A stretch of 64,000 nt of DNA from Schmidtea polychroa (lineage: Eukaryota), in assembly GCA_044892525.1 (NCBI GenBank), contig CM097885.1, positions 3,660,001 through 3,724,000 of the forward strand. Direction: 5' to 3'. Under the pieces are notes generated by a model. The model searched no databases, had not been told where the DNA came from, and saw only the letters and a list, made by a program, of their open reading frames with translations. Positions 3,011 through 60,136 of this stretch are shown in pieces. The translations under genes and the position numbers were made by a program. Numbering within the stretch: the stretch's first letter is position 1; every line of letters starts with the position of its first letter.

Positions 3011-3299
3011 ATAAGAATTATACTTCTGCGGTTCCAGTATTCAAAGGATTGCTGGGGAAATTTATTTTAATTACAAGAATCGAACTAGACATTAGTTTCC
3101 TAGAAACCTGTTAGGATGATGAGATGATTCCTTCTTTTATTTTCACAGTGAAGTTGAGTAGTTATCAATGTACCGAAAATCACTGAAGAAAAAGAAACGT
3201 TTAATGGACAGAGAATTAAATCTAATAATATTGTCTTTGATCTAGTTAATTTGTAATTTTCGTTTAAAATACTGTATCAAATGATGTATAAATGTTTCT

Positions 3300-17689: not shown

Positions 17690-19948
17690 CACCCAACTCT
17701 TTTTTTACACGTTAGATACGTTCGAACGAAATCGTGTAAAAAATGACATGTTAAGCATAGTAAAATTGAGGATGTGTTCTACAATTATAGAAAACCGTGT
17801 AAAATAGAAAAAGGAACCATTAGTTGTTCTAAAAAACCGTGCAAAGAAAAAGTAAATCTTGGAATCATATTATATAAGTTTTAGAAAATATAATCCATAC
17901 ATGTTTTTATTAAAAATAGATAATATTAGTAATTTTAGTCCATAAGTAAAAAACAAATAAAATTTTTGTTCATAAATACATATAAATTAAATTCAAATTG
18001 GAAATATAAGTCTTATTTAGCAACTAATATTTATTATCACTACTTTATAATAAGCGTGCACGTTTATTATAGACTGGCTAAAATTACTTTACTCACTTAG
18101 GTCTACCAAATCTGATATTGGTTTTCTTATGATAAAATCTGTTATAAGCTGCTGGGTTTTGCCTTTTTAACTTCATTATAAAGTTTTTGATAGCCAGCCA
18201 TACAAACCTGTAAATTCCGTTGGAATTTTAATGTACGTTCCACGTTAGGATCATGAGTGAGAAAAATTTGTTCCATACTGGTACCAAATTTTAAGCCATC
18301 GCGAATTAAATCAGAAGTTAGTTGATGAATTTCACCTTCACCTTCGCCTTCATCACTATGTTTCTCATTAATACCATTAACTGTTATAGCTTCAATCAAA
18401 TCCTCATCATCTAAAGGCTTTCCAAGCATTAACCCCTCTATATCCGCAACTTGCATATTTTCAAAGCCCTCACCACCAATTTCGTGTGAAAGCGTTACAA
18501 TTTCAGAACACACAACTACATTTTGTATTACAGAGTTACTAATTTTAAAACATGCTGGCCATATTTTCTTCCAACAAGCATTTAAGGTAGAAGTCCGCAG
18601 TTGTTTTATGGCAAATGAAGCATATGTAATAAAATCCATAATCGTATAACTTTTCCATGCTTCGACAACCGTCAAATTTCTGTCTTCGATTGAATCCAAA
18701 ATATATTTTATGTAATAGACTTTAAAGGTTGCTATTATACCCTGATCCAATGGTTGGATCAAATAAGTGATGTTAGGCTCCAATAATACCAACTCAATAT
18801 TTGGATGGTGTAGTACAGGATGGCTGCGTGCATTATCGACGAGTAAGAGTACTTTGAATTGAAGACCCTTTTGTTCCATATATTTTTGAACTTCAGGAAC
18901 GAATCATTCTTGGAACCATTTTGTAAAGACTTATCCTGTCATCCACGCCTTTCTATTAGCCATCCAATGGACTGGCAGCTGTTTAATATTCTTGCCTTTC
19001 AAAGCTCGTGGCATTAATGACCTGTTGATTAACAGTGGCTTTAAAATCTTATCTCCAGATGTGTTACTACACAATAAAAACGTTACTCGATCCTTAGCGG
19101 CTTTGAAACCACCAGCAAATTTTTCTGATTTAGCAATGTAGGTCCTGGAGGGCATTTTTTCCGGAATAATCCCGTCTCACCGGCATTAAATACCTGGTCT
19201 GGCGTATTATTTTTATGAATTTTTCTGGAAACCTCTTTGCAGCATTTTCATCTGCTGATGCTACTTCTCCTTTTATTTTTACATTATGAAATACTTGCCT
19301 TTTTAGGAATCCTTTAGGCATTTTAGGAATGCTTTTAAAATCCTTTTAAGAATGCCTTTTTAGGCATTGACACATGTTGGTGGCTCCAATTCCCGAAGTC
19401 GTTTGTATATTCTAAGGGCTTTTTCCTTTATAATTTTTCCATCTATAGGTATTTTTTTCTGCAGCAAATCCTCTATCCAAACCACTAAACATTTTTCCAT
19501 TTCCTCCAAGATAATATTTTTTTATGGTTCTGATAGTCGCTTCACTTAAACTAAGATCTTTGCCAACAGATGTGGGACCTACGCCTCTCTCAAGACTGTC
19601 TAAGATTTTTATTTTAGTTTCCAAAGAAATCGCTTGTCGCTTCCGATTATTTTTCGTTGGTTTAGACATCATATTAATCGGCTATAATAAAAATTAAAAT
19701 AAAAACACTTAATAAAAAATTTTTAAATCTAAAAAAATAACATTACCAGTTTATTAAAATTTCCTTATGTAAGTAAAGTTTTCTAAAAAAATATTTGTCA
19801 AAATAACAATAAAAACAAAATTAAAACAATTTTTTTTTGGAAATAGTGTTAAACCGAATATTTCGTGCAAAAAAGATTTGTTCCTTTTTTGTGGACCGTG
19901 TTATTTCAAAATTGTGTAAAAAAAGACCGTGTAAAAAAGACTTGGGTG
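17690..19948 (-). mobile_element. Full-length Tigger/pogo (TIGD1-like) transposon with pseudogenised transposase
   Basis: TIRs CACCCAACTCTTTTTTTACACG / CGTGTAAAAAAGACTTGGGTG with TA TSDs. ORF pieces KRQAISLETKIKILDSLERG (HTH), MPSRTYIAKSEKFAGGFKAAKDRVTFLLC, LLVDNARSH, LIQPLDQGII. Confidence 0.92.
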
Positions 19949-24942: not shown

Positions 24943-27340
24943 ATGTCCCCATCTCATCATTTTCTGTGGCCTATTAACAAAATAAAAATATCTGTATAAT
25001 GGAATTTTTTTTAAAAATTTTTGTCAATTTTAAATATGACCAGCATTATATCAGTAATATTATTTGTCTTATTTTTCTTTCTAATCTAGTTTTTGTCATG
25101 AAACTTTACTGATCTATATTTAAAATTGTAAACGTTGTTTAATTACGTACAATGAAATACATATGTATTTAAAATCTGTAAACGCGTGTTTGATTGTTTT
25201 TATTGTGAAATTTTATTTGCTTAATATACACATAAAATTAGGTAAGTACATTTAAAAAATTTGGTATTTAATTTTTTTTTTAATTTTTTAGTTTTTTATT
25301 ATTTCAAGCGAACTTATTTTATTATTTAAAATTTACAAATATTAATATTTACTACTGTCATAAAATGAATGCAAAAAAAAACGAGAAATTACGAGTGAGA
25401 ATCGGGAATTTAAAGAACGATGGGAAATTGATTATATGTTTGTGAAGCAGAAAGAAATTTATCTGTGTTTGATATGCCGGATGAATACTACTATATGTAA
25501 AGAATATAATCTGAAGCGTCATTATCAATCACAGCATGCAGACAAATATTCGAAATATAATGGTGAGTCGAGAATCGTCATACTAGAAAATTTAAAAAAA
25601 CAATTTAAGCAGCAAACATCAATTATCCCCCTCGCATGTAAGGCTCAGGATGCATCTGTTTATGCTTCTTATGCAGTTGCAAAAGAAATTGCCAAAGCCA
25701 AAAAGCCATTTACTGATGGTGAAATTATTAAGAAGTGTGCAATTAAAATGACTCAAGCATTTGGAGATGATAAAATGGCAAAACAGTTCGAGTCAGTTTC
25801 TCTTTCTCACCAAACCGTTGCAAGACGAATCTTAAATATGGACACCTTCTTAGTTGAAAAATTAGCAGACATAGTAAAAAATTGTATATATTTTTCAATT
25901 GCGCTTGATGAAAGCACCGACATATCTCATACCAGCCAAATGCTGATTTTTGTACGAACAGTGGATGGTGATTTTAATGTTTCGGAGGAGTTACTGAAAT
26001 TGGCTTCCCTACATTCAACAACAAAAGGTGTAGATATTTATGAGGAACTCAAAAATGTTGTTTGCATGTATGGTGGTTTTGAAAAATGCACTGCCATTGT
26101 AACTGATGGAGGAAAATTAATGGTCGGGAAAAATATAGGACTCGCTGGACTGCTAAAACAAAATGGTATTAATTGTCAAATGTTGCATTGCTTTATTCAC
26201 CAGCAAGCTTTATGTGGAAACATTATGGGATTAAGTTGCACGATGAGTACAATTATTAAAATAACAAATGCAATAAGAGGCGGAAACCGTGCACTCATTC
26301 ATCGTAAATTCAACAATTTCTTGAAGAACTTGATGCCCAATATGGTGATCTACTTTTGCATAGCCAAGTTCGCTGGTTAAGTGCAGGGAAATGCCTTAAA
26401 AGATTTTTTCAACTTCGTAAAGAAATTAAACTTTTTCTTATGGAAACAGAATTGGATTCGTCATTTATAGCCAGTTTTAATGAAAAAAACATTTTTAATT
26501 TCATTAGCATTTTTAGCAGATATTACCGAATATTTGAATGTTTTGAACAAAACTTGCAAGGCAAAGACCAAAACATAAGTCATCTGGTAAGCCATATCAT
26601 CGGATTCCGCAATAAGTTACGTTTGCTTCGGTCGCATTTGATTAACAACAATTTGGTGCACTTCGAGTGTTGTAATGAACTTGCTATCGAAATGCAAGAA
26701 ATCGGTCAACAATTAAACATGAAAGATTATGTACCCATGTTGGACAAATTGGTTGAAGATTTTGATGCCAGATTTTCTGATTTTGATGCAATTAAACCAG
26801 AACTAAAATTATTTAATAATCCGACTACCATCGACGTTGAAGAAACCGATATTAAATATCAAATGGAATTATGTGAATTGCAAGCTGACGAATTTTTTAA
26901 ATCAAGGCTGGAGACAGGGGTAAATTTATTCAAAATGTTTCCAAACGACAAATATCCAAAATTGCGCGATTTGGGCTTAAAATTAATTTCTATGTTTGGT
27001 AGTACATATATTTGTGAACGAGCATTTTCTGACATGAAATATATCAAATCTATATATAGAAATTCAATGACCGACAAAACACTGGAAGAAATTTTAAGAA
27101 TTTCCTCAACTAAAATTGATATAAATATCGAAGTTCTTGTAGCTGCCCATATAAATAAGCAGTTTTCACATTAATAAATATTATGTTAATATTTTTTTTC
27201 TTTTTTTTCTTGAACAATGAACTAATAAAATACTAAAAAAAATTATAAATGACTTTTAATTAAAATTTATAGTATATGGCCCGCCAAACCTACAAAAAGA
27301 TAAAATTGGCACACATGTACAGAAAAGTTGGACAGCGCTG
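24943..27340 (+). mobile_element. hAT (SPIN/Buster) element nested in the PLE RT, left terminus deleted
   Basis: Transposase CLIC..YNLKRHY, FSIALDESTD, VTDG, HCFIHQ, VRWLS, MFGSTYICERAFS with frameshifts. Right end ...AAGTTGGACAGCGCTG followed by GTCTACAT; GTCTACA also at 24936-24942. Removing it restores RT MNSLHKNI. Confidence 0.9.
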
Positions 27341-28517: not shown

Positions 28518-30859
28518 CGCAATCTGGATAATCAATAATAAGACATAAAATATGCAATATCTAAACATATTAACTAATAATAATCATCTCCAAACTGTAT
28601 CAAAAATTTTAAAAAAAAATATTTCAAACAAAAAAAAATATTTTAAAAAACCAAACCATATTTAACATAGCCCCACATACATATTATTTTAAAATTAAAT
28701 TTTAATTTAATAACATTTAACATTCAACATAAAATTAACAAATTTAAAAAAATTACATAGTTTACAAAACACAAACATAATTATACCACAAACAAGACTC
28801 CCAACCTTCATCCTTCAATTACTTAAACACATTCAAAATCTCCGTGGAACGGGCAACTTGATCATTTATTTTTGGATTTAAATATCTAATCAACAATGCC
28901 TCACAAGTTACTCGTTCCCAATAATTACTTAAACCTTTTGAAATAATTTTAAAATCAGAGATACCTATTTTTTACTGACACATTTCCTAACATGATTACT
29001 AATATTAGTCAATGCTTTTGGTCGACAGTGTTCAAGAACTCGGGTGCAGAGATGGCGGGCAGTCTCTCCAATGTATGTGGCATTACACTCATTACATGAA
29101 AATTGATACACGAGCTCAGAACACAAACCAATTGGCGTTGGACATTTACTAGTAAACATACTGCTAACTTTGCAAGAAGTGGAAACAATCATGAATTGAT
29201 CCTTGTCTACATATTTGAAAATTTTATGTTTAAATTCTCTGAAATCCTCAGAATAAGGCAATACTAACACATATTTCGGCTCCATGCGATTGGATCGATC
29301 CTTGTCACTTTCCGAATTTAACATAGTACTTTCCTCAGGATCAATAGGTACCTCAGATTCAGACGTACGCATACCAACGTTATCAGCTTTAAACATTAAC
29401 TTATCCACGGTCACTTTTGTCATTTTCTCAAGAAAAGATTTAGAGTAGCCATTTTTAAGTAACAACTCAACCAATACATCAATACTTTTTACTGAATTAG
29501 CAAACGTGGAGGATAGTGGCCACGCACGAAACACTAATCCTCTCACCATATTCCTTTTATATTTAAACTCACAAAAACTATCAGGCGTTGTATATAAACC
29601 AGTATCCGTCGACTTTCTATATATTTCAGTCTCATAATGTTTCGATTTACGTTGAATAAGTAAATCTAAAAACGCAATCGATGACCATTTTTCTTCTTCA
29701 CATGTGAATTTAATATTCATATGCAAATCATTCATAAAATTTAAAAACGGCATTACATGCTCACGACTCTCAAACACCAAAAAAATATCATCCACATACC
29801 GTTTGTACACACTAAGTTTAACAAGATGGCATGAAGACATTTTCTTTTCCAAACTAGACATAAAAATAGAAGCCATAGTTGGGGCTAATGGAGAACCCAT
29901 AGCAACACCATCCACTTGTTTATACCATTCATTATTAAACAAAAAGTTAACCTTCGACGTTGAAAATTCAAGCAATTTGCGAAAAGCAATTTTATCCATA
30001 TTCTTATGTTCAGACTCATTATTATTTCACATTTCACAACATAAATCAATCGTTTCCGCCAATGGAACATTAGTAAAAAGACTACACACATCAAACGAAA
30101 CCATCATTTCATCATCAGAACTTTTCTTCAGTGCAGCAATGAATGAAGCAAATTCAAAGCTATCCTTACATTCGAACTCAGACTGGATTGTTTCCACTTC
30201 TTGCAAAGTTAGCAGTATGTTTACTAGTAAATGTCCAACGCCAATTGGTTTGTGTTCTGAGCTCGTGTATCAATTTTCATGTAATGAGTGTAATGCAACA
30301 TACATTGGAGAGACTGCCCGTCATCTCTGCACCCGAGTTCTTGAACACTGTCGACCAAAAGCATTGACTAATATTAGTAATCATGTTAGGAAATGTGTCA
30401 GTAAAAAAATAGGTATCTCTGATTTTAAAATTATTTCAAAAGGTTTAAGTAATTATTGGGAACGAGTAACTTGTGAGGCATTGTTGATTAGATATTTAAA
30501 TCCAAAAATAAATGATCAAGTTGCCCGTTCCACGGAGATTTTGAATGTGTTTAAGTAATTGAAGGATGAAAGTTGGGAGTCTTGTTTGTGGTATAATTAT
30601 GTTTGTGTTTTGTAAACTATGTAATTTTTTTAAATTTGTTAATTTTATGTTGAATGTTAAATGTTATTAAATTAAAATTTAATTTTAAAATAATATGTAT
30701 GTGGGGCTATGTTAAATATGGTTTGGTTTTTTAAAATATTTTTTTTTGTTTGAAATATTTTTTTTTAAAATTTTTGATACAGTTTGGAGATGATTATTAT
30801 TAGTTAATTTGTTTAGATATTGCATATTTTATGTCTTATTATTGATTATCCAGATTGCG

Positions 30860-45232: not shown

Positions 45233-46454
45233 CATGGCGTCCACATGGGGAGACTGACAAGGCTTTAGCCCTAGGGCCCGGGATTAATGGGGCCCGCCGT
45301 GGCAGGTCGGTTAGCTAAATGAGAAACTTATTAAATATTGACTTTTGTTTTGTACATATCAACTAAAATTTATTAATTTTCCACGAGATCGGTTAACATG
45401 GAGTGCATCAAAAGAAGCTCTCTTCTGTCTACCATTTCGTATTTGTTGTGACCAAATTAGCAAAAACTTAAGCAGTTTAGCCCAAGAAGGATTTTTGCCT
45501 AGAAATAAACCTTGGAAAAAGTTGTATGATATTTTGCCTCCTCATGAAAATAGTGCTCACCATAGAAAACATGATTTATCATGGAAATTCTTATTGCAGA
45601 CATTAAAAGGATATGGAATAGATAAAGATTTACAACGGCAAATTCAATGGGAGACAACTTATTGGAAAGCACTTCAGAAACGGATTGTAGATGTAACATT
45701 ATTTTTATCATCAAGAGGTTTAGCTTATCAGGGATATAACACTCATATTGGTGATGTTCATAATTGGAATTTCTTAGAAATTTTAGAATTGATTGGAAAA
45801 TATGATGAAGTGACACAACTTACCGCAAAAGCATCAAAGCTTGTAAAAACATATGAGTCAGATCTGTCAGAAGACTTACTGCACGAATTTCTTCCCCTTA
45901 AAAGTATTCACAAAACAGTTTTCGGAACTAAAAGAAGTCCAGTTAAACTTCTGAATGCAATTTATGACAAAAAACTGCAAGGTACATTTGCTAATATCTG
46001 CCTCGCCATTCAACTGTTTTGTACCGTACCAGTTACGGTTTCTTCAGCTGAAAGATCATTCAGAAGGCTGGCAAATTCAATAAAAACATGGCAAAGAAGC
46101 ACAACTAGTCAAGATCGACTCAATCATCTAGCAATTTTAAGTATCGAAAATGATTTAGCAAAGAAATTTGATTTTAATGATGTCATTGAAAAATTTGCAT
46201 TGACATAAGCTAGAAAATATAGTCTACTTTGAGATAATTTTTGATATTATTGTAAGTTTTTACCATAGTCTATGTTTTTTAAAATGTAAAGCTGAAAGCT
46301 GTAGTTTATTTTTAATAAATTTTTAATGTTACTTTCTTGCCATCATTTATCCGCCCTTTTTTATTCTAATTCCTATAGAGCATCAAGTGGTATATAGTTT
46401 GGGGGCCCGCGAAAATCCTGGCCTGGGGGTCCCCTTTAGGATGTGGGGGTCATG
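45233..46454 (+). mobile_element. Internally deleted hAT (ZMYM1-like) element
   Basis: TIR CATGGCGTCCACAT / ATGTGGGGGTCATG. Perfect 8-bp TSD ATGAAGAT (45225-45232, 46455-46462). ORF 45345-46208 joins the N-terminal part directly to the dimerisation domain (TVPVTVSSAERSF). Confidence 0.9.
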
Positions 46455-46487: not shown

Positions 46488-46705
46488 ACATAGTAGTTGG
46501 TAGTTAGTTGTTGGTACTTATTTGTTAGTACCTAGTTATAAATACTTAGTAGCTGGTAATTATTACCCGTTGTTGATACTTGTTATCTGCTTGTAAATAC
46601 TTAGTTGTTTATACTTAGTTGTTAGCTGGTTGTTAGTACCTAGTTGTTAGTACCAAATTGTTAGTACTTAATAATTGGTACCCAGTAGTTGGTTTAATTG
46701 TCTAG
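46488..46705. repeat. Degenerate ~14-bp tandem repeat
   Basis: Unit approximately TAGTTGTTAGTAC(C/T). Confidence 0.7.
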
Positions 46706-47685
46706 TGGATTTTGTGGTTTGTGCAAATCAATTAAATTTAACTTGTTTTCTTAGATGTAGATGCTGTCAAGAATACAAGAAGAAAGAAATAGTATACATT
46801 CTACTTGCTGAATTAAGAAGAACTTCATTATAAGCAAATATGTGATGAAGAATAAACGTTGCATCTTTATTTTGCTTTTAATTATTATTATTTTTATGTG
46901 TTTGTTAGTACTTGGTGGTTGATGTAGTGCCTCTGACTTCTACATTAATAAAAATATCAACTTAATAATTAAACTTAAAATATATTATTAAATTAATTAT
47001 ATTAAAATGATTGTTTATATATTCTTTTTTTTCAAAAAACATCATAAACAATTCATGCATCTTTCGACATCTCAATGGTTAACTCTCATAAAATGAATAT
47101 AAAATATCTGGCAAACATTCGAGAAGATGAAACATTTGTTTTCCTATCTGAGATCAATTTAATCAGTTTGATCATCAACCCCTTCTATTCAACCAAAGAA
47201 ATTTTCCATAAAGAAATTTTCTTTAGAATACTAGTAGTCATCCCAATGTCCAGATCAAATATAGGTCAATCGAATCATTTTATTTATTTATTTATTTTTT
47301 TTTTAAATTTATTTAATTCTATTTAATTTTTTTTAATTTAATAATTAATTATTTTATTAGGTTTTTTGTTTTAATTAATTACTTTAGTTAATTTTAATAT
47401 TCTAGTTAATATTCTAACAAGAGTGTAAATTGTAACAATATTATTTCAATTTGAATAAAATTTTAATTAGTAATAATCATAAAATAAAGCTGTGTTAATT
47501 TAAAATAAAATGGGCATTAATTTTTCAAAACAAAGTAAAGTTTTTCATGATAAATAATAATTCTTACTTGAAACTAATTATCTAAATTAATTGCACAAAT
47601 GAATTATTAAATGATAAAACATATTTTAATTAACGAAGTCAAATAATTCACAATATATATTTTATTATTCACATAAATTTAATTG

Positions 47686-50600
47686 TTAAAGTGCTTGTTT
47701 CGATTTGCATTCATTTCTAGACATAGCAGTTGCAATATGCATTTGACGAATCTTATAGTGACCGTAGGCATAGCTTTCATTAGAATTGAACCAATACCTT
47801 TTATCATCCAAACATTGGAGAGCTCGTTTTTCTGTAATGAAAGTATACAACTGATGATTAACACTTCCTATTCTCTTTTGTTGAATGCTCACTGTTCCAC
47901 CATCAGTATACACTTTTTTATAGGCTTCATGGGTGATATTAGAATTTGTAAGACTTATTCCTTTGGCTTTTAGAGTGTTTTTATCGCCTTGGAGGGAGTA
48001 GCATTTGGGTCGAAGAAACACCCATTCTTTATATTGATTTCCTTTATTCTCATCCTTAACTTTCCCGATTACCGAACAAATTTTATCTGAGAACAATGGA
48101 TCAGTCACTGGATAATTTGAAGTATCTAGGAGCCCATCGGCAATCATTTATGGATACAGTTGTAAGCGTAAATCAACATTTTTACACTCTAAAAAGAAGG
48201 AATCTGTGTCACCACCTACGATATTAATTTGACAATTGAATTCTTCTCTATAACTCTGTAGTTCTTTATATTGAAACTGGTACATGCGAAGTTTAGATAA
48301 ATCAAGTACGGTTTGTCCAATATACATTGGTCTATCTAAACACACAATTTCCTTATTGAGTAAAACAGCAATGAGATCATCCGCAATCTTGATGCTACGA
48401 CGAAACATAGGATGACTACAATAAGTTATCAATCTTTTGCTTTTGTTGCATAATCTCAAATTTATACGTTTCTTCAAGTTTTCCACAGTTTTACCGTATA
48501 AACTGTTGTTCTTTAACTTATAATAATCTCGCTGAAACGAATCCGTACTAGCTGCTCTCATTTTGGTATTGTAATCAATATATCCTTTGAAAATAGCCAC
48601 TTGCTTGAATTCTACAGCACGATTAACTTTTGTGACTTTTGCGCCGTAACTCAACCACTCTGTCAAAACTCTACCATTAACTACATAGTTTTTCTTAGGC
48701 TCATGAGTTAACAACAGCTTTTCAACTTTACTACCAGGTGGATAACAAAGCTCAGGAGCTATAGGTAAATCATCTAGCTTATCTTGTATACTATCAGGAA
48801 TGACGATGTCAACCTCTAGAACATATCCACGATCTCCATCAAACTCATCCCCATTTGCACATCTTTCAACAATACCATTCATTTCAGTCTGATCATTTAT
48901 CCATCTAAATTCACCAACAGGAAGTTTTTGCGACAGTGCCCATCCATATAAATTATTAACATCTAGGTATGACATTTGTGTTGATTCATCAGCTTCAACA
49001 TGATGTTTGTTGATAAATGTCATTCCACCACGAATACCAGCTTCAAATAAACGGTAAAGCTCTGGATCTTGAATAAGTTCTACCGGTTCAGGTAACTGTT
49101 TAATAGCTGATGCCCAACTTAATCCGGGTATGGAAACAAACGATAGAGCCTCAAGTCCGTCTTCGTCAAATGTTTTTTCTCTGAAAGCTTCAAAAACATC
49201 GGCCAACAGAAAAACATCCAGCTTGAGATATACTAGCATGTAATCTAGCAGTGTCTCACAGTTGTATTGTTGCCAGATTCGATTTGCATGTATATAATCT
49301 TCTTGACTAACTCCTTCCCAAATCGGTGGTAATTCTCTTATTGACTGTAAAACATCCATTGATGTAGCTATATCATAAGGAAAAATGGTTTTACAAGTCA
49401 TCATCTGTGATTCGAAAACATCTGAGGTCAGTGGAAGACATGGTAAATTTTTTGATAAATTTGCCAAGCTGCTATTTAAAAATTGTAAAGAATCAATGAA
49501 TCTAATTCTTCTGCCTTTCGATGTCGCTGTAAGTGTGAGAAACTTTTCTGTTGATTGAGGAATAACATTTAAATTCCAATCGGGGAATTTTCCAATTGCA
49601 TATTTTAATATATGATGAATGTCATATCCACGAAGATTGTGAAATACAACAGGTAAAGACGGATTGATTCTTCTAGCCAAATTACAATCTTGACACGCTG
49701 CTCCGAGATATTGACTGGTAAAATGATCATGATCCCGAACAGGTATATTGATAATCTTTTTACAAAGGTAGCAATGAGTTTGGTTTGTGAATTCTTCCTG
49801 CTGTTCCCAAGTGAGTTCCATCATTTCCTTTGATCCATTAATTTTATACCACGGATAAACTATGTCTGTAGCTATATCATCCAATGCTTGTATAAACTGA
49901 ATGATACAGTTTTTCCCAACAAATGTTTCATTTCGGATCGGACAACCTTGATGAAGAAGCACAAATTCAGATGCAATCGGCTCATGTTTTTGGAAGTGCT
50001 TGCCATCTAGAGGTAATATCGATTCAAAGTCCGCGTAGACAACAAACTGCTGTTTTATAGTTTTACTCCAGTCTTTAAATTCGATCTATTTATTCTCTGG
50101 CATTGAGTATAGAGTCGTCCGCTCCACATTCTTCCTACAAAGACATATATGTCTTTCAAAAGCAGGACGTTTTCGAAACCCATGAAGACATGTATGACAC
50201 CATTGTGATTGGATTCTGACTCCTTCTACTTTATCTCTGTAATTCAGCAGTCGATCGCGATTGGTTACAGCCAAAAAATGATAATTTAATTCTAAAATTT
50301 AGTTAATATTTTAATGATTAATAGAAATATTACCTTCTTCAATCAATAGGAGATATATCTGAGATCCCGTCGGAGTACTTCTATATACCAAGTCAACGAA
50401 CGGATTCTTGAAAATATCATAAGTTTTTTGTTTAATTGGATCCTTATTATATTTGAGAACATTGATCGATAGATTAGGATTCATTGCCTCAAATTGGCAA
50501 ATGTTAACCAACTTTATTGGAAACCAATCTGATTTCCATTTTAGCTCTAAATATATATATATATATTTTTTTTTCTTAGAATGATATAAATATATATTAC

Positions 50601-51675
50601 CACTTAAATTATATTTCATTACTCTTTCTCTGTAGTGTTTTATGTCATCATAATGTAATACAGCCAGTATGCTATATAAAAAACAGAATTGATCATTGTT
50701 TTGAACATTAACTAAAGCCTTGCAGTTTTTCAGGTAATTTGGCGTTTTAATGTAACTTGAACCTAAGTAAATATCTTGATTTATATATATATAATAATGT
50801 AAATAAACTTACCAGATACATGTATTATGTCTGATAATTTAGTTAAAATCATAGTAACTTCTAATATTTTATGAATTCTCCACCCACTACTTTGTTGAGT
50901 GTATTTCTCCAACTTTTCTTTTAATTTTTCAATTCCATCATTAATAAATGAAGATGACATTGTAATTGCTTTATTCGACAAACACCATTTTTTATTTTCA
51001 CCATCCTCTTTGATAAACTCTGCACAAAGTCCAAATTGGATTTTTACTGTCCCCATTCGTTGAATATGATCTTCTATTTCTTTGATGAGACAATCTGGAA
51101 CAACAATGTCAGGAGAATTAATTGCAGATACATCGCTTGTCAATTCAACTCGAGAACCATTTAAGTCAGACTCCCGACGTGGACACAATTGTATGTTAGA
51201 GTCTCCATTTCCGTAAAATATTGACTTTCGTTTTGTGGTGCCAGAGTTTTGTCTAACTATATTTATAATTAATATTAAACAACTTAAATAACATAACTTG
51301 TAACATATTCTTTAATCTGCTAAGGATCGTATGATGTATTCATTTTCGATTGTACTATAAACAATTAATAATTGTTAATAGTAGAAAGAGTATTACTTTT
51401 AGTGATCATCCTGCCCTTCGTTTCTTCGAATCTTCTAAGATGGTGTCCGTGTTGTCGTACAAACATTAACCACCTACTTGGTGTTATAATGAGACATTCC
51501 GGACATATGTAACCCGATAAGGTAGAGTCATTTATCTTGAAATATGATGATGTAACTGATTTACAGTTCTCCACATCTTCATGACTTTCGGCAATACAAA
51601 ATTTATATAAACTGCATCCGTTCACTAAAAGAAAATAATCATTAATATTAGATAGAGAATAAAAAATTATTCACT
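47686..51675 (-). pseudogene. Protein-primed family B DNA polymerase, left arm, 7 exons, 1236 codons plus stop
   Basis: Exons 51675, 51624-51397, 51354-51298, 51256-50813, 50762-50601, 50546-50334, 50291-47686 splice in one frame. Motifs GSSYIKTP..NNDQFCF, YADFES, VRDHDH..GAACQDCNL, FHNLRGYD, YLDVNNLYG, KLKNNSLYGK, GDTDS. Three nonsense codons (51320-22, 50086-88, 48148-50). Confidence 0.9.
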
Positions 51676-51747
51676 TATATAAGTTAAATTAAAAGTTTAA
51701 ATGACAAACATTTGAAAAGTTACTGCTTATATATTACACATGATTAA

Positions 51748-51881
51748 ATTCTGACTGATCAAAATCAAGGAAGGGGTAGGAAAAATAAATATATTCTGAC
51801 CAATCAAAATCAAGGAAGGGGTAGGGAAATTAAATACATTCTGACCAATCAAAATCAAGGAAGGGGTAGGAAAAATAAATG
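51748..51881 (-). promoter_or_regulatory. Triplicated ~45-bp CCAAT-containing unit upstream of the pPolB TATA box
   Basis: TTCTGACCAATCAAAATCAAGGAAGGGGTAGG x3 here and x1 in the right arm (55147-55190). TATATAAG lies about 15 bp toward the gene. Confidence 0.6.
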
Positions 51882-52159
51882 CATTACGTTGCAGTATTTT
51901 AAAACACATTTTGATGCTAAAGTTGACTTATTTAACATTTTCATAATAATTTAATAAAAAATAATGTGATGAACACACAAAGTAATATCATTTTTCATCA
52001 AATTGCAAAACAGTAATAACGTTTTCATAAAATTATAACAAAGTAATAACATATTTCAAATAAATTTTCAACAGTTGTAAAATATTTAAGCAAATTGTTA
52101 TAAGATTATAAAAATATTGCAACAAAGTAATAAAATAATACAACATTTTAAACTCTAGA

Positions 52160-52600
52160 TCAATCCATTTTATAGAAAATTAAATTTTATCTCTATAATA
52201 TATGAATAAATATACAAGGAAATTACGTTAACGTATAATAAATACAAGTTTATCGTAAAAACATGTGTGTATTACACACAAAACAAGATACATAATTTCT
52301 AATCAATCCATTTTATAGAAAATTAAATTTTATCTATATATTATATGAATAAAATCCTAAGAAAATTACGTTAACCGCGCGAAAAATACAAATTTATCGT
52401 AAAAACATGTGTGTATTACACACAAAGCGACAAACTAAAATTGTAATTGAGCCATTTTATAGAAAATTAAATTTTATCTATATAATATATGAATAAAAAT
52501 CCAAGAAAATTACGTTAACCGCGCGAAAAATACAAATTTATTGTAAAAACATATGTGTATTACACACTAAACACCAAACTAAAATTGTAATTGAGACATG
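52160..52600. repeat. ~145-bp tandem repeat, 3 units (2 units in the right arm, 54570-54868)
   Basis: Unit starts CCATTTTATAGAAAATTAAATTTTATCT and contains the near-palindromes TACGTTAACGTA and TGTGTGTATTACACACA. Confidence 0.9.
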
Positions 52601-53859
52601 TTGTAGAGAATTAAATTCTGCCTATACATGGTTACACTTAAATCCCAATCGGACAAAGAGAAAAGAGAGAAAAAGAGAGAGAAAAACAGTAGAGGAGGGT
52701 ATTGTGTGGAGCCGGGAACAAGGACATATGACGTCATCGATGACGTCACAAGGACGTATGACGCATACCCCCCACCCCTCGGGGAGGGGGGTTTTTTTAA
52801 TTTTTTTTAATATATTACGTTGCGGTATTTTAAAATTTATATTACGTTGCGGTATTTTAAAATTTATGTTGAGGTTCCAAGAATCTCAACTTGATGATCT
52901 TATATAAATAAATAAGTCAAACACTGGTTCTTTCAAGACTTTTATTTGATAACAATAATGATATATTACAAAATAAAATATTCACCTTTTCACACAGTCA
53001 ATTATGTAATTTTATATAGGGTTGTCTTGTTGTCTTGTTTTCTTTGCTAATAGTCTCTAGATGCTATTACCTGAGCTCGGTTATGTAAATCTGTATGCTC
53101 AAATTATATTGCAATATCAATTACTGAATTTGCAACTCTTCTTCGCAAATGATTTTTTTGGGTGAGTTGACTGAAATATCAGTCTGTATATATACCAATT
53201 TTTTGTTGACACCCCATTTGGAGTGTCAACATACCTATTTTATTTTCCCTGGTATTTTGTTTATTTTAAATGCGATTTTCTTGGTTTTGTTTGTTTGGTT
53301 GGTTTCCATTTGAAATCGTTACAGTTTTGAATGAAATTGAAATTAAATATATTTTGCATTATTTATTTTGATTGATATTTTCGAGAATATTTACAATATC
53401 GATTTCAATAAATCCTAATCATGTGTTGTTTAAATAGGAACTCGATTTGCAATTTGCTCAATATTTGCAAAAGCAGTCGTTTCAAGGAGTAGATTCCCAA
53501 ATACTTATTATTCAATTTTGTTTTATTGAATTAATCTAAAAATATTTTGCTTAACATTTTAATAAGCCTTTATTATTATTATTGTTTATTTTATCAAAGT
53601 CCAAAACGATTAAAATTGGATCAGTAGCATCTCTCATAACGCAACACTGTTTCGATCGCGCATAGAATGAATATGATACGACGAATAAATAAATCATTAG
53701 CAACAAAAATAAAAATCGTAAAGCAACAACAACAAAATAACCCAAAACCACATTTTATGTTTGAAATTGTTGAAAATTTTTCTAATGCAAACAATATGCA
53801 CTTAGTGCAATAAAATAAACATTCAACCAACTGGTTGATTTTTTTTTAAAAAATAATTG

Positions 53860-53964
<105 letters not shown>

Positions 53965-53977
53965 TAATAATAATAAC

Positions 53978-54051
<74 letters not shown>

Positions 54052-54064
54052 TAATAATAATAAC

Positions 54065-54130
<66 letters not shown>

Positions 54131-55261
54131 TTCACCATAAAAATAAAAACAATCGATGTTATAATCAAATAATTTAATCAATATAGTCATAATTGTCGAT
54201 AGATCACCAAATTGTCATCATCTTGTATTCGAATCAATTTTCATTAACTTATTTCTGAATATGTATATTTATTCTATATCTATCTGCCCCTATTGTATAA
54301 TATTTTAATTTTAAAATTTTTAGGATTCTCCCATCTTCTAACATTTATATTACGTTGCGGTATTTTAATATATTACGTTGCGGTATTTTAAAATTTAAAT
54401 TTATTTTATTCACATCATTCGAAAGGTCTTGAAGAGATCTATGCAAAGGTTTCACCCGGCTCCACACAAAACCCTACTCTACTGTTTTTCTCTCTCTTTT
54501 TCTCTCTTTTCTCTTTGTCCGATTGGGATTTAAGTGTAACCATGTATAGGCAGAATTTAATACTCTACAACATGGCTCAATTACAATTTTAGTTTGGTGT
54601 TTAGTGTGTAATACACACATGTTTTTACGATAAATTTGTATTTTTCATACAGTTAACGTAATTTTCTTAGGATTTTATTCATATAATATATAGATAAAAT
54701 TTAATTTTCTATAAAATGGATTGATTAGAAATTATGTATCTTGTTTTGTGTGTAATACACACATGTTTTTACGATAAATTTGTATTTATTATACGTTAAC
54801 GTAATTTCCTTGTATATTTATTCATATATTATAGAGATAAAATTTAATTTTCTATAAAATGGATTGATCTAGAGTTTAAAATGTTGTATTATTTTATTAC
54901 TTTGTTGCAATATTTTTATAATCTTATAACAATTTGCTTAAATATTTTACAACTGTTGAAAATTTATTTGAAATATGTTATTACTTTGTTATAATTTTAT
55001 GAAAACGTTATTACTGTTTTGCAATTTGATGAAAAATGATATTACTTTGTGTGTTCATCACATTATTTTTTATTAAATTATTATGAAAATGTTAAATAAG
55101 TCAACTTTAGCATCAAAATGTGTTTTAAAATACTGCAACGTAATGCATTTATTTTCCCTACCCCTTCCTTGATTTTGATTGGTCAGAATTTAATCATGTG
55201 TAATATATAAGCAGTAACTTTTCAAATGTTTGTCATTTAAACTTTTAATTTAACTTATATA

Positions 55262-58200
55262 AGTGAATAATTTTTTATTCTCTATCTAATATTAATGATT
55301 ATTTTCTTTTAGTGAACGGATGCAGTTTATATAAATTTTGTATTGCCGAAAGTCATGAAGATGTGGAGAACTGTAAATCAGTTACATCATCATATTTCAA
55401 GATAAATGACTCTACCTTATCGGGTTACATATGTCCGGAATGTCTCATTATAACACCAAGTAGGTGGTTAATGTTTGTACGACAACACAGACACCATCTT
55501 AGAAGATTCGAAGAAACGAAGAGCAGGATGATCACTAAAAGTAATACTCTTTCTACTATTAACAATTATTAATTTTTTATAGTACAATCGAAACTGAATA
55601 CATCATACGATCCTAAGCAGATTAAAGAATATGTTACAAGTTATGTTATTTAAGTTGTTTAATATTAATTATAAATATAGTTAGACAAAACTCTGGCACC
55701 ACAAAACGAAAGTCAATATTTTACAGAAATGGAGACTCCAACAATTGTGTCTACGTCGGGAGTCTGACTTAAATGGTTCTCGAGTTGAATTGACAAGCGA
55801 TGTATCTGCAATTAATTCTCCTGACATTGTTGTTCCAGATTGTCTCATCAAAGAAATAGAAGATCATATTCAACGAATGGGGACAGTAAAAATCCAATTT
55901 GGACTTTGTGCAGAGTTTATCAAAGAGGATGGTGAAATTAAAAAATGGTGTTTGTCGAATAAAGCAATTACAATGTCATCTTCATTTATTAATGATGGAA
56001 TTGAAAAATTAAAAGAAAAGTTGGAGAAATACACTCAACAAAGTAGTGGGTGGAGAATTCATAAAATATTAGAAGTTACTATGATTTTAACTAAATTATC
56101 AGACATAATACATGTATCTGGTAAGTTTATTTACATTATTATATATATATAAATCAAGATATTTACTTAGGTTCAAGTTACATTAAAACGCCAAATTACC
56201 TGAAAAACTGCAAGGCTTTAGTTAATGTTCAAAACAATGATCAATTCTGTTTTTTATATAGCATACTGGCTGTATTACATTATGATGACATAAAACACTA
56301 CAGAGAAAGAGTAATGAAATATAATTTAAGTGGTAATATATATTTATATCATTCTAAGAAAAAAAAATATATATATATATATTTAGAGCTAAAATGGAAA
56401 TCAGATTGGTTTCCAATAAAGTTGGTTAACATTTGCCAATTTGAGGCAATGAATCCTAATCTATCGATCAATGTTCTCAAATATAATAAGGATCCAATTA
56501 AACAAAAAACTTATGATATTTTCAAGAATCCGTTCGTTGACTTGGTATATAGAAGTACTCCGACGGGATCTCAGATATATCTCCTATTGATTGAAGAAGG
56601 TAATATTTCTATTAATCATTAAAATATTAACTAAATTTTAGAATTAAATTATCATTTTTTGGCTGTAACCAATCGCGATCGACTGCTGAATTACAGAGAT
56701 AAAGTAGAAGGAGTCAGAATCCAATCACAATGGTGTCATACATGTCTTCATGGGTTTCGAAAACGTCCTGCTTTTGAAAGACATATATGTCTTTGTAGGA
56801 AGAATGTGGAGCGGACGACTCTATACTCAATGCCAGAGAATAAATAGATCGAATTTAAAGACTGGAGTAAAACTATAAAATAGCAGTTTGTTGTCTACGC
56901 GGCCTTTGAATCGATATTACCTCTAGATGGCAAGCACTTCCAAAAACATGAGCCGATTGCATCTGAATTTGTGCTTCTTCATCAAAATTGTCCGATCCGA
57001 AATGAAACATTTGTTGGGAAAAACTGTATCATTCAGTTTATACAAGCATTGGATGATATAGCTACAGACATAGTTTATCCGTGGTATAAAATTAATGGAT
57101 CAAAGGAAATGATGGAACTCACTTGGGAACAGCAGGAAGAATTCACAAACCAAACTCATTGCTACCTTTGTAAAAAGATTATCAATATACCTGTTCGGGA
57201 TCATGATCATTTTACCGGTCAATATCTCGGAGCAGCGTGTCAAGATTGTAATTTGGCTAGAAGAATCAATCCGTCTTTACCTGTTGTATTTCACAATCTT
57301 CGTGGATATGACATTCATCATATATTAAAATATGCAATTGGAAAATTCCCCGATTGGAATTTAAATGTTATTCCTCAATCAACAGAAAAGTTTCTCACAC
57401 TTACAGCGACATCGAAAGGCAGAAGAATTAGATTCATTGATTCTTTACAATTTTTAAATAGCAGCTTGGCAAATTTATCAAAAAATTTACCATGTCTTCC
57501 ACTGACCTCAGATGTTTTCGAATCACAGATGATGACTTGTAAAACCATTTTTCCTTATGATATGGCTACATCAATGGATGTTTTACAGTCAATAACAGAA
57601 TTACCACCGATTTGGAAGGAGTTAGTCAAGAAGATTATATACATGCAAATCGAATCTGGCAACAATACAACTGTGAGACACTGCTAGATTACATGCTAGT
57701 ATATCTCAAGCTGCATGTTTTTCTGTTGGCCGATGTTTTTGAAGCTTTCAGAGAAAAAACATTTGACGAAGATGGACTTGAGGCTCTATCGTTTGTTTCC
57801 ATACCCGGATTAAGTTGGGCATCAGCTATTAAACAGTTACCTAAACCGGTAGAACTTATTCAAGATCCAGAGCTTTACCGTTTATTTGAAGCTGGTATTC
57901 GTGGTGGAATGACATTTATCAACAAACATCATGTTGAAGCTGATGAATCAACACAAATGTCATACCTAGATGTTAATAATTTATATGGATGGGCGCTGTC
58001 GCAAAAACTTCCTGTTGGTGAATTTAGATGGATAAATGATCAGACTGAAATGAATGGTATTGTTGAAAGATGTGCAAATGGGGATGAGTTTGATGGAGAT
58101 CGTGGATATGTTCTAGAGGTTGACATCGTCATTCCTGATAGTATACAAGATAAGCTAGATGATTTACCTATAGCTCCTGAGCTTTGTTATCCACCTGGTA

Positions 58201-59246
58201 GTAAAGTTGAAAAGCTGTTGTTAACTCATGAGCCTAAGAAAAACTATGTAGTTAATGGTAGAGTTTTGACAGAGTGGTTGAGTTACGGCGCAAAAGTCAC
58301 AAAAGTTAATCGTGCTGTAGAATTCAAGCAAGTGGCTATTTTCAAAGGATATATTGATTACAAAACCAAAATGAGAGCAGCTAGTACGGATTCGTTTCAG
58401 CGAGATTATTATAAGTTAAAGAACAACAGTTTATACGGTAAAACTGTGGAAAACTTGAAGAAACGTATAAATTTGAGATTATGCAACAAAAGCAAAAGAT
58501 TGATAACTTATTGTAGTCATCCTATGTTTCATCGTAGCATCAAGATTGCGGATGATCTCATTGCTGTTTTACTCAATAAGGAAATTGTGTGTTTAGATAG
58601 ACCAATGTATATTGGACAAACCGTACTTGATTTATCTAAACTTCGCATGTACCAGTTTCAATATAAAGAACTACAGAGTTATAGAGAAGAATTCAATTGT
58701 CAAATTAATATCGTAGCTGGTGACACAGATTCCTTCTTTTTAGAGTGTAAAAATGTTGATTTACGCTTACAACTGTATCCAAAAATGATTGCCGATGGGC
58801 TCCTAGATACTTCAAATTATCCAGTGACTGATCCATTGTTCTCAGATAAAATTTGTTCGGTAATCGGGAAAGTTAAGGATGAGAATAAAGGAAATCAATA
58901 TAAAGAATGGGTGTTTCTTCGACCCAAATGCTACTCCCTCCAAGGCGATAAAAACACTCTAAAAGCCAAAGGAATAAGTCTTACAAATTCTAATATCACC
59001 CATGAAGCCTATAAAAAAGTGTATACTGATGGTGGAACAGTGAGCATCCAACAAAAGAGAATAGGAAGTGTCAATCATCAGTTGTATACTTTCATTACAG
59101 AAAAACGAGCTCTCCAATGTTTGGATGATAAAAGGTATTGGTTCAATTCTAATGAAAGCTATGCCTACGGTCACTATAAGATTCGTCAAATGCATATTGC
59201 AACTGCTATGTCTAGAAATGAATGCAAATCGAAACAAGCACTTTAA
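55262..59246 (+). pseudogene. Protein-primed family B DNA polymerase, right arm
   Basis: Exons 55262, 55313-55540, 55583-55639, 55681-56120, 56171-56332, 56387-56599, 56642-59246. Lesions: 4-bp deletion near 55742, TAG 56845-47 (shared with the left arm), TAG 56881-83, ExoI D>A, 1-bp deletion near 57614. Confidence 0.9.
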
Positions 59247-60136
59247 CAATTAAATTTATGTGAATAATAAAATATATATTGTGAATTATTTGACTTCGTT
59301 AATTAAAATATGTTTTATCATTTAATAATTCATTTGTCCAATTAATTTAGATAATTAGTTTTAAGTAAGAATTATTATTTATCATGAAAAACTTTGCTTT
59401 GTTTTGAAAAATTAATGCCCATTTTATTTTAAATTAACACAGCTTTATTTTATGATTATTACTAATTAAAATTTTATTCAAATTGAAATATTATTGTTAC
59501 AATTTACACTCTTAAAACAATAAATGCTGCTACCAAGCAATCATCATTTTATAATTTACACTCTTGTTAGAATATTAACTAGAATATTAAAATTAACTAA
59601 AGTAATTAATTAAAACAAAAAACCTAGTAAAATAATTAATTATTAAATTAAAAAAAAAATTAAATAGAATTAAATAAATTTAAAAAAAATAAATAAATAA
59701 AATGATTCGATTGACCTATATTTGATCTGGACATTGGGATGACCTTGAAAGTGTCCTGGAGTCCTCACTACATACTACTAATACTAATTCACGATTCTAG
59801 TGATTCTCATGATAAAGTTCATTAAGAGAGCCAAACTGACCTATCCGTCTCCGATTGCCAAAAGGAGTTAATAATCGAAGTTATTACAGATAAAGATTTC
59901 AATACTTTCACATCGTACGATACTGGAGCTGAAATTCCCAAATGTGAGATCATCAACAAACTCAGTATATTCGCCAGATCAAAGTCCGATGCTTTCGTTG
60001 GAAAATTAACTGCTGGAGCCAATATTTCTATGATCGCTTTCAATGTCGTTTTCAATAAAAACTTTATGCAAATTCGTTTCGAGTCTATACAGTTGACACT
60101 TGGTTGTTGATTGAATTATTATTATTATTATTACTT

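Follow-up and report, generated by a model that had tools for sequence, protein, structure and literature searches.

Adenoviruses start protein-primed replication from reiterated ends and can give rise to defective DNA with long inverted repeats. Bidensoviruses consist of small linear units, about 6 kb in size, that have inverted ends and a family-B DNA polymerase of the Polinton type that uses protein priming (pPolB), and in the linear pPolB plasmids of fungal and plant mitochondria and of the yeast cytoplasm an N-terminal extension supplies the terminal protein. Polintons, also called Mavericks, are in one published definition elements that encode both a polymerase and an integrase (PMC5499653), and a passage of the 2014 capsid paper notes Polintons that have lost their capsid, protease and ATPase genes together (PMC4028283). 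Here we describe a palindromic element of 12,547 bp at positions 47233-59779 of a 64,000-nt window of the Schmidtea polychroa genome (assembly GCA_044892525.1, contig CM097885.1, forward strand; C1:3660001-3724000; the assembly is 781 Mb in size and includes four chromosome-sized contigs), together with the family to which it belongs. Positions without a contig prefix refer to this window. Like Polintons and Mavericks, the family has a pPolB of the same broad clade, 6-bp target-site duplications (TSDs) and 5'-AG...CT-3' tips. Unlike them, it has no genes for an rve integrase, capsid, penton, ATPase or adenain-type protease, and its inverted repeats, 5.3-6.4 kb long, hold the sole gene and form almost the entire element. 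The parts are thus Polinton parts; what is unusual is the polymerase-only content, the coding inverted repeats that constitute the element and the division of labor with a helper that these imply. We consider it probable that the family is a self-replicating satellite which has kept the polymerase alone and is integrated in trans by a Polinton integrase.

The window is AT-rich throughout, with a G+C fraction of 0.20-0.35 across its 64 kb. The element is flanked by identical AATACT hexamers at 47227-47232 and 59780-59785, starts with AGTAGT (47233-47238) and ends with ACTACT (59774-59779), and it therefore presents both the 6-bp TSD and the AG...CT tips of Polinton-type insertions, as a preliminary description made from the sequence alone had proposed. 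The left arm (47233-52716, 5.5 kb) and the right arm (54455-59779, 5.3 kb, ending in ...CCTCACTACATACTACT) are inverted copies of each other, and the two-arm layout given in that description was recovered by self-BLAST, in which 47419-51790 aligned to 59513-55147 at 99.154% identity over 4,372 nt (32 mismatches, 3 gaps). Further in, identity is 97.65% over the following 639 nt and falls to 91.2% in the innermost 422 nt, a stretch made up of 144-nt tandem repeats (about three copies at 52165-52674 in the left arm and about 1.9 copies in the mirror array at 54598-54873 in the right). The left terminus (47233-47320, plus strand) starts with AGTAGT, continues into an AT-rich stretch and lacks 32 nt that immediately follow AGTAGT in the right tip and in other copies; of the two tips, the right one alone matches the 56-nt tip pattern used below. 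No Pfam family of integrases, ATPases, proteases or capsids matched within the element, in agreement with the earlier claim that such genes are missing, and the same searches detected these families in a complete Polinton resident in the same genome.

Each arm carries one pPolB gene reading outward, detected by PF03175 (DNA_pol_B_2) with an E value of 5.9e-31 for the left copy and of 9.6e-8 for the right one. The left gene (47686-51601, minus strand) spans about 1,200 codons in several frames, with probable short introns, and the right gene lies at 55336-59246 on the plus strand. The preliminary description was correct in assigning one outward-reading gene to each arm and mistaken in calling these genes whole, because both are broken. 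In-frame stops interrupt the left gene at 50086-50088 and 48148-50; the right gene has one stop at 56845-56847, the mirror of 50086-50088, a second, private stop at 56881-56883 and a frameshift between 57615 and 57642. Relatives without introns, 1,178-1,256 residues long, align to 51601-51422, 51185-50811 and 50763-47755 in several separate frames, so that the gene likely contains short introns. We also compared the region 46500-53800 with Logan contigs of four sequencing runs, which cover it in pieces of 86-333 nt. Nearly all family contigs in these runs have another base at the position of the 50086-50088 stop, which both window arms carry; this stop therefore arose in the direct line of the window copy and reached both arms. 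In the runs of organism A the arms are very high-copy and the spacer part at 53332-53800 is low-copy. Pieces at least 95% alike to parts of the pPolB gene (47500-51300, with patchy cover) were also seen in run X14, which is labeled as a second organism, B.

The arms of the window copy are 1,738 bp apart (52717-54454). The preliminary description reported this spacer as 1.74 kb without a recognizable integrase, ATPase, protease or capsid gene, and both its length and the absence of these genes hold; as a native feature it does not stand, most of it being a later insertion with a microsatellite. The native center amounts to about 260 bp in total. Its left part (52717-52867) contains two TGACGTCA sites, a G+C hairpin and repeats of 23-27 nt (TATATTACGTTGCGGTATTTTAA), and its right part (54346-54454) contains the same 23-nt repeats. 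The nested insertion (52868-54345) interrupts these repeats and comprises an unrelated repeat of about 980 bp (approximately 52860-53847), an (ATA)n tract at 53862-54130, that is (ATA)89, and a tail. The nested repeat recurs at four other places in the genome with 97-98% identity over about 930-980 nt; many more places match its first 375 nt or so, and it gave 1,660 first-look candidates. In other copies of the family the center measures about 0.2-0.7 kb. The window copy is an old, inert and decayed member of a multi-copy family, since its arms have diverged by 0.85%, both of its genes are broken, one tip is damaged and its center has received a nested insertion.

Genome-wide searches with the termini, which the preliminary description had suggested, confirmed this family. 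The 86-nt right end gave 1,439 first-look candidates, and the 56-nt tip with at most 3 mismatches occurred at 181 places (77 forward, 104 reverse), whereas the reversed control gave none. From forward/reverse tip pairs among 100 listed matches (of at least 181 termini) we examined 19 copies, namely the window copy and 18 others, ranging in size from 3.6 to 16.6 kb. Perfect 6-bp direct TSDs, all different from one another, flank 15 of them; one further copy matches at 5/6 positions and three have none. Seven of the 19, the window copy included, retain arms of 3.8-6.4 kb with 98.8-99.8% identity (C2_102, 6,364 nt and 98.8%; C3_190, 6,309 nt and 99.4%; C1_1272, 6,178 nt and 99.5%; C1_194, 5,062 nt and 99.5%; C1_214, 4,257 nt and 99.4%; C1_252, 3,857 nt and 99.8%), and the other 12 are internal-deletion forms with shorter inverted ends. 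The two-arm layout with its own 6-bp TSD is hence found at independent loci, as anticipated for a family of pPolB-only elements. An intact member is a near-perfect palindrome of about 12.4-13 kb, in which each arm consists, from the tip inward, of a conserved AGTAGT tip of about 85 nt, some 270 nt very rich in A+T, an outward-reading pPolB gene about 1,200 codons long and, upstream of it, the 144-nt repeats, and in which the arms meet at the center. In five arms, belonging to three copies, the 870-codon last exon, which is the longest polymerase frame, has no interruption. No integrase or capsid frame was found in the 19 copies, and frames of at least 250 codons other than pPolB occurred in only two of them, where they belong to nested long terminal repeat (LTR) retroelements (gag, protease, reverse transcriptase and RNase H).

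Individual loci show further peculiarities. The copy at C3:19025365 lies at the center of a palindrome of about 26 kb (C3:19019110-19045535; arms of 9,162 nt, 99.47% identity) that runs 2.85 kb past both tips, and the hexamers flanking this copy are reverse complements of each other, with no direct duplication. The 16.6-kb copy at C2:102367502-102384140 (L018 and L019) is a full palindrome with arms of 6,364 nt at 98.8% identity, and a third, partial arm of 2.7 kb with 99.9% identity is inserted near its center. Between C1:822212 and C1:1220774 one tip of the window family recurs in runs at a spacing of 4.4-4.6 kb, its strand and its two mismatches being the same each time; this region, close to where contig C1 starts, resembles a block amplified in tandem.

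The same plan recurs in a second polymerase-only family. A genome search with PF03175 scored 91 places from 8,820 first-look candidates, and all five close pairs among them are divergent (minus then plus). The figure of 8,820 is not a count of polymerase-only elements, because many of the long frames, of 1,400-1,490 codons, are the complete Polinton's own polymerase. We examined two of the five divergent pairs. At C3:32531000-32548999 the arms measure 7,014 nt with 99.24% identity and contain uninterrupted, outward-reading frames of 1,301 codons; the exact tips or duplication of this copy could not be fixed. At C1:139676500-139691500 the element is 12,595 nt long, with arms of 6,116 nt at 99.79% identity, frames of 1,214 codons, tips AGTAGGTAGTTAGTGG...CCTACT (AGTAGG...CCTACT) and the TSD TACTTA. 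Neither of the two copies contains an integrase. For the 1,214-codon frame hmmscan returned no PF03175 row, at a place where the PF03175 genome search had given 3.8e-30. Between the polymerases of the second and the window family, identity is 53.6% in amino acids (BLASTP against P0001) and about 65% in nucleotides, and the tips differ. Within the inner arms, however, the region of 144-nt repeats is 90-94% identical at the nucleotide level between both families (window 52088-52700; L042/L043, 7527-8135; L143/L144, 7480-7865). Going by these alignments, the inner-arm likeness may stem from a cis element common to both families or from a recent exchange.

Palindromic chimeras are a known artifact of long-read libraries, and the layout could in principle have been produced by such reads or by misjoined haplotypes. 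The C3:19025365 locus could be of this kind. For the family as a whole we regard an assembly artifact as extremely improbable. The window arms differ by their 32 substitutions and 3 indels and by arm-private stops and a frameshift, an identical hexamer flanks both ends of the element, and the layout occurs at at least seven loci of this family and two of the other, each with its own TSD and its own arm divergence of 0-1.2%. To the argument which the preliminary description had raised against a read chimera, from arm-specific changes and the common TSD, recurrence at other loci is added.

We next consider the relationship between the two arms, which was analyzed on a 1.6-kb region present in 22 arms, with both arms represented in eight copies. 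Within-copy distances are 0-0.0062 in seven of the eight, compared to a between-copy median of 0.0275 (223 pairs), and the two arms are mutual nearest neighbors in six. In one copy the arms are 0.0019 apart and marginally nearer to a very recent sister copy; in the remaining one, C2_122, they are 0.0219 apart. Because within-copy distances are small and the arms are mostly sisters, the arms are identical or nearly so when an element lands, or are homogenized later. Homogenization in place would be expected if the palindromes had formed in the chromosome, by inverted duplication of a one-armed insertion whose arms are then kept alike by gene conversion, as in sex-chromosome palindromes. The C3:19025365 locus, with its arms extending past both tips and its reverse-complement flanking hexamers, is what such a process would leave behind, and the stop private to the window copy that its two arms have in common is compatible with it. 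We nevertheless judge chromosomal palindrome formation very improbable for the family. It predicts inverted flanks, whereas 15 of the 19 copies and the second-family copy have direct 6-bp TSDs outside both arms; no one-armed full-length copy with its own TSD was seen among the 19; and conversion in place can be weak at best, given the private stops and the frameshift that the window arms retain.

Between lineages, the polymerase shows dN/dS ratios of 0.16-0.38; in one example, 52 synonymous and 51 non-synonymous differences correspond to a dS of 0.10 and a dN of 0.025. Judging from these substitution patterns, the polymerase has evolved under purifying selection and the lineages that spread had a working polymerase. 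This result bears on the possibility, raised in the preliminary description, that the element is a one-off snap-back (copy-back) defective Polinton genome, or, alternatively, two truncated insertions placed head to head. Strand-displacing polymerases can switch templates. In its symmetry, the element resembles snap-back defective viral genomes as one source defines them, namely palindromes of one genome end copied in reverse complement (PMC13506859). It differs from them in being heritable, integrated and multi-copy, with many copies at unrelated sites, each with its own TSD and with different flanks, which exclude segmental duplicates of a single event, and no full-length parent with this polymerase was found, that of the resident Polinton being only 30-35% identical. 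Furthermore, because the gene is under selection and a second, divergent family has the same plan, the window family is not the by-product of one infection. Two separate insertions are contradicted by the TSDs, which match across the outer ends (in 15 of the 19 copies) and not around each arm. We therefore give almost no credence to a one-off origin of either kind. The recurrence, the second family and the selection instead support the other proposal of the preliminary description, a family of pPolB-only satellites. Nor are the other copies ordinary Polintons; these are present in the genome, but as a different family.

In the polymerase itself a zinc finger is followed by a little-finger-like domain, an OTU-like Cys/His domain and a C2HC finger, and these in turn by an exonuclease domain with an HNH-type insert and by the polymerase domain. 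Across 25 aligned relatives the Exo I-III and Pol A-C catalytic residues are invariant, and both the HNH-type Cys/His/Asn pattern and the OTU-like Cys/His pair are kept. The structural model of the polymerase has a pLDDT of 88. In a Foldseek comparison with viral models, its best matches were polymerases labeled adintovirus, MELD virus, bidensovirus and bird-associated "densovirus" (E values from 1e-57 to 4e-43, 18-24% identity), followed by adenovirus (1e-30), tectiviruses and phi29-type phages; by this comparison, the polymerase belongs with those of Polintons, adintoviruses and bidnaviruses. A PDB sequence search with the polymerase gave no match, and Foldseek with the N-terminal model against the PDB gave no match at E <= 1e-3. 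In structural superposition, the N-terminal model contains a Y-family little-finger-like domain (Z 8.4, root-mean-square deviation 2.6 over 93 residues); next come the OTU-like domain and the C2HC finger. Model residues 239-372 match OTU folds in more than 20 of 50 rows with Z scores of 4.5-7.1, a range common for chance matches, and Cys260 and His363 of this domain are invariant in 24 sequences. This long N-terminal extension corresponds to the N-terminal 440 residues of the relative P0003 (L063:486-1805) and to window 50311-51601.

Relatives of this polymerase number more than 5,000 in metagenomes and genomes, and its Atlas clusters are mostly eukaryotic, chiefly from arthropods and molluscs. 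On two metagenome contigs (L066 and L067), polymerases 49-53% identical to P0003 adjoin an rve integrase (one with a chromodomain) and an A32-type ATPase, so that the pPolB clade also occurs in ordinary Polintons. Among IMG/VR viral contigs, 68 pattern matches included no relative. Large inverted arms were not seen in 30 metagenome loci of at least 5 kb, a result that is uninformative because short-read contigs cannot hold such arms.

A complete Polinton of about 14.9 kb resides in the same genome (L045 and L046, C3:134897272-134909271). It encodes a double jelly-roll capsid protein (PF21738, 1.3e-20), an A32 ATPase, its own pPolB, protease-like, penton-like and fiber-like frames, and a 482-codon fusion of a parvovirus-type phospholipase A2 domain (PF08398, 2.2e-8) with an rve integrase. 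The 24-nt sequence of its tip, AGTAGTGAGGAATCTATGCACCCC, occurs at 3,085 places in the genome, against 0 for the control; these matches form about 1,500 terminus pairs and units 14.3-15 kb apart. Perfect 6-bp TSDs flank seven of eight copies, two of which share their flanks and represent one event. No internal stop interrupts 64 of the 88 scored integrase places, and many of the polymerase frames reach 1,400-1,490 codons. The Polinton polymerase is 30-35% identical to that of the window family and has the same DHDH...C..CN insert. The tips of the two have in common AGTAGT and 11 of 12 nt of TAGTGAGGA.TC, the Polinton tip reading AGTAGT...AGTGAGGA. At each Polinton end the 24-nt tip is present twice, in inverted orientation and 222-246 nt apart, and the interior is not palindromic (for example L044:2831-3000 with L045:1-86). 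At C3:134890690-134909271 two Polinton copies with 94-95% identity stand head to head and have one two-tip unit in common. Stretches resembling tRNAs upstream of the capsid gene were also considered, and ARAGORN found none there. A helper role for this complete Polinton is plausible, and the window family may be mobilized by it in trans.

The polymerase might, however, mobilize the element by itself. An autonomous polymerase-only transposon would use its own multi-domain protein, with the HNH-type insert, OTU-like domain and zinc fingers, to cut the target with a 6-bp stagger and to join or prime there. This would accord with the conservation of the HNH-type and OTU-like residues in all aligned relatives, with the N-terminal model, whose OTU-fold matches reach Z 6-7 and whose little-finger match reaches 8.4, with a sole gene that is under purifying selection, and with the lack of an integrase in the 19 copies of the window family and the two of the second. 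Yet the HNH-type insert is also found in the integrase-bearing resident Polinton and in the metagenome relatives that stand beside rve integrases, and it is therefore not tied to integrase loss. Moreover, a 6-bp TSD with an AG...CT tip is typical of rve-mediated Polinton insertion and common to the resident Polinton. We consider autonomous transposition improbable.

We thus favor, with moderate confidence, integration in trans of an element that replicates itself. Supply in trans is the simplest reading because the TSDs and AG...CT tips point to an rve integrase, and the element has none in a genome that is full of them. This reading builds on what was observed: the palindromic architecture, the copy number, the TSDs, the sister relation of the arms, the selection on the polymerase, the missing integrase and capsid genes, and a complete Polinton in this genome whose TSDs are equally long. 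The element would be copied outside the chromosome by its own polymerase, with protein-primed initiation at either of its identical ends. The displaced single strand would fold back into a long hairpin whose duplex end may act as a normal origin, and mismatch correction or copy-back could keep the arms alike. Because the displaced strand would fold back on itself, each cycle would correct one arm against the other, or rebuild both from a single template, and the arms would be identical at landing. Insertion with a 6-bp TSD would then be carried out by the rve integrase of complete Polintons recognizing the related tip, and packaging by Polinton capsids is possible.

Adenovirus and phi29-type phages combine protein-primed initiation with sliding or jumping back, and the inverted repeats of adenovirus are repaired through a panhandle, of which the homogenization of the arms would be a long-arm analog. 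The reiterated AGTAGT ends, the 85-nt tip with its AT-rich stretch of about 270 nt and the selected polymerase appear to fit initiation of this type. Hairpin priming has been proposed, in a 2026 preprint, for virophages and Polinton-like viruses with terminal palindromes (10.64898/2026.07.28.741278). A more specific form of the proposal holds that the palindromes are the integrated form of an obligate Polinton satellite replicon, linear or hairpin-shaped outside the chromosome, which uses its own pPolB and the capsids and integrase of its helper; we regard this form as tentative and rather unlikely.

Several points weigh against integration in trans of a self-replicating element. The replication route, the homogenizing step and the helper are inferred throughout, and with them the extrachromosomal form, the protein priming and the use of the Polinton integrase. 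Among the Logan contigs of the four runs over 46500-53800 none spans a junction or the center. Beyond the tip likeness of about 17-20 nt, the window element has no further nucleotide likeness to 18.6 kb of Polinton sequence. The pPolB of the resident Polinton is also opposite in orientation relative to the nearest end, and because of this and of the 30-35% polymerase identity, the window family is not a recent derivative of that Polinton. The copies were sampled as pairs, 19 from at least 181 termini, and larger integrase-bearing relatives with the same tip could have been missed. As to the arms, chromosomal gene conversion could account for their sister relation in place of a replication cycle; arm identity drops toward the center in some copies, whereas full copy-back in every cycle predicts otherwise; and the arms of C2_122, which is probably a recombinant, come from different lineages and are not nearest neighbors. 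The C3:19025365 locus, finally, is either an in-place fold-back duplication or a mis-assembly, and shows that a palindrome may also grow in place or be wrongly assembled.

Comparison with other minimal systems shows both likenesses and differences. Bidensovirus polymerases are among the best structural matches of the window-family polymerase (E values of 4e-43 and 5e-38, 21-22% identity), but the window element has the polymerase alone, without the parvovirus-type capsid or NS1 that accompany pPolB on the two linear single-stranded segments of Bidnaviridae, and is integrated with TSDs. With linear pPolB plasmids it has in common a minimal replicon of inverted ends and a pPolB with a long N-terminal extension; these plasmids, in contrast, usually also carry an RNA polymerase, are extrachromosomal and have no 6-bp TSDs, and the N-terminal part of the window-family protein is predicted to resemble little-finger and OTU-like domains. 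Foldback elements and those of the miniature inverted-repeat transposable element (MITE) type resemble it in their very long inverted arms and in the dependence on an enzyme supplied in trans that we propose here. Foldback arms are non-coding, however, and MITE-type elements lose all genes, whereas the window-family arms consist of a polymerase gene under purifying selection. No description of a palindromic polymerase-only Polinton derivative was found in the literature searched, Repbase not included. That nematode census, as its text puts it, was limited to polymerases linked to an integrase (PMC10748475), and in one report on planarian genomes "DNA/Maverick" expansions appear as a repeat class alone (10.64898/2025.12.11.693146).

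Non-autonomous DNA transposons normally keep their ends alone; here, the replication enzyme is kept, duplicated and conserved, and it is the integrase and capsid module that has been dropped. If the mechanism proposed above is true, Polinton-type replication and integration can be split between separate co-evolving genomes, the arms constitute a built-in clock of insertion age, like the LTRs of retroelements, and the family offers a natural system for studying how protein-primed replicons homogenize their ends. A "polymerase plus inverted repeats" module has been invoked to explain how bidnaviruses and linear plasmids arose, and the family is a concrete candidate for it as well. Should the more specific form with helper capsids hold, these elements would be an animal counterpart of virophage-type parasites of a virus-like element and would show in living form the free-standing module proposed as the source of bidnaviruses. 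In practical terms, 12-kb palindromes are difficult to assemble and easy to mis-annotate, and the single label "Maverick" conceals two kinds of element that differ greatly.

The rest of the window contains remnants of other transposons, comprising three hAT dimerization domains, one piece of a DDE_1 transposase and one reverse transcriptase, at 9405-11260, 18142-18903, 25364-27174, 28965-30026 and 45342-46208.

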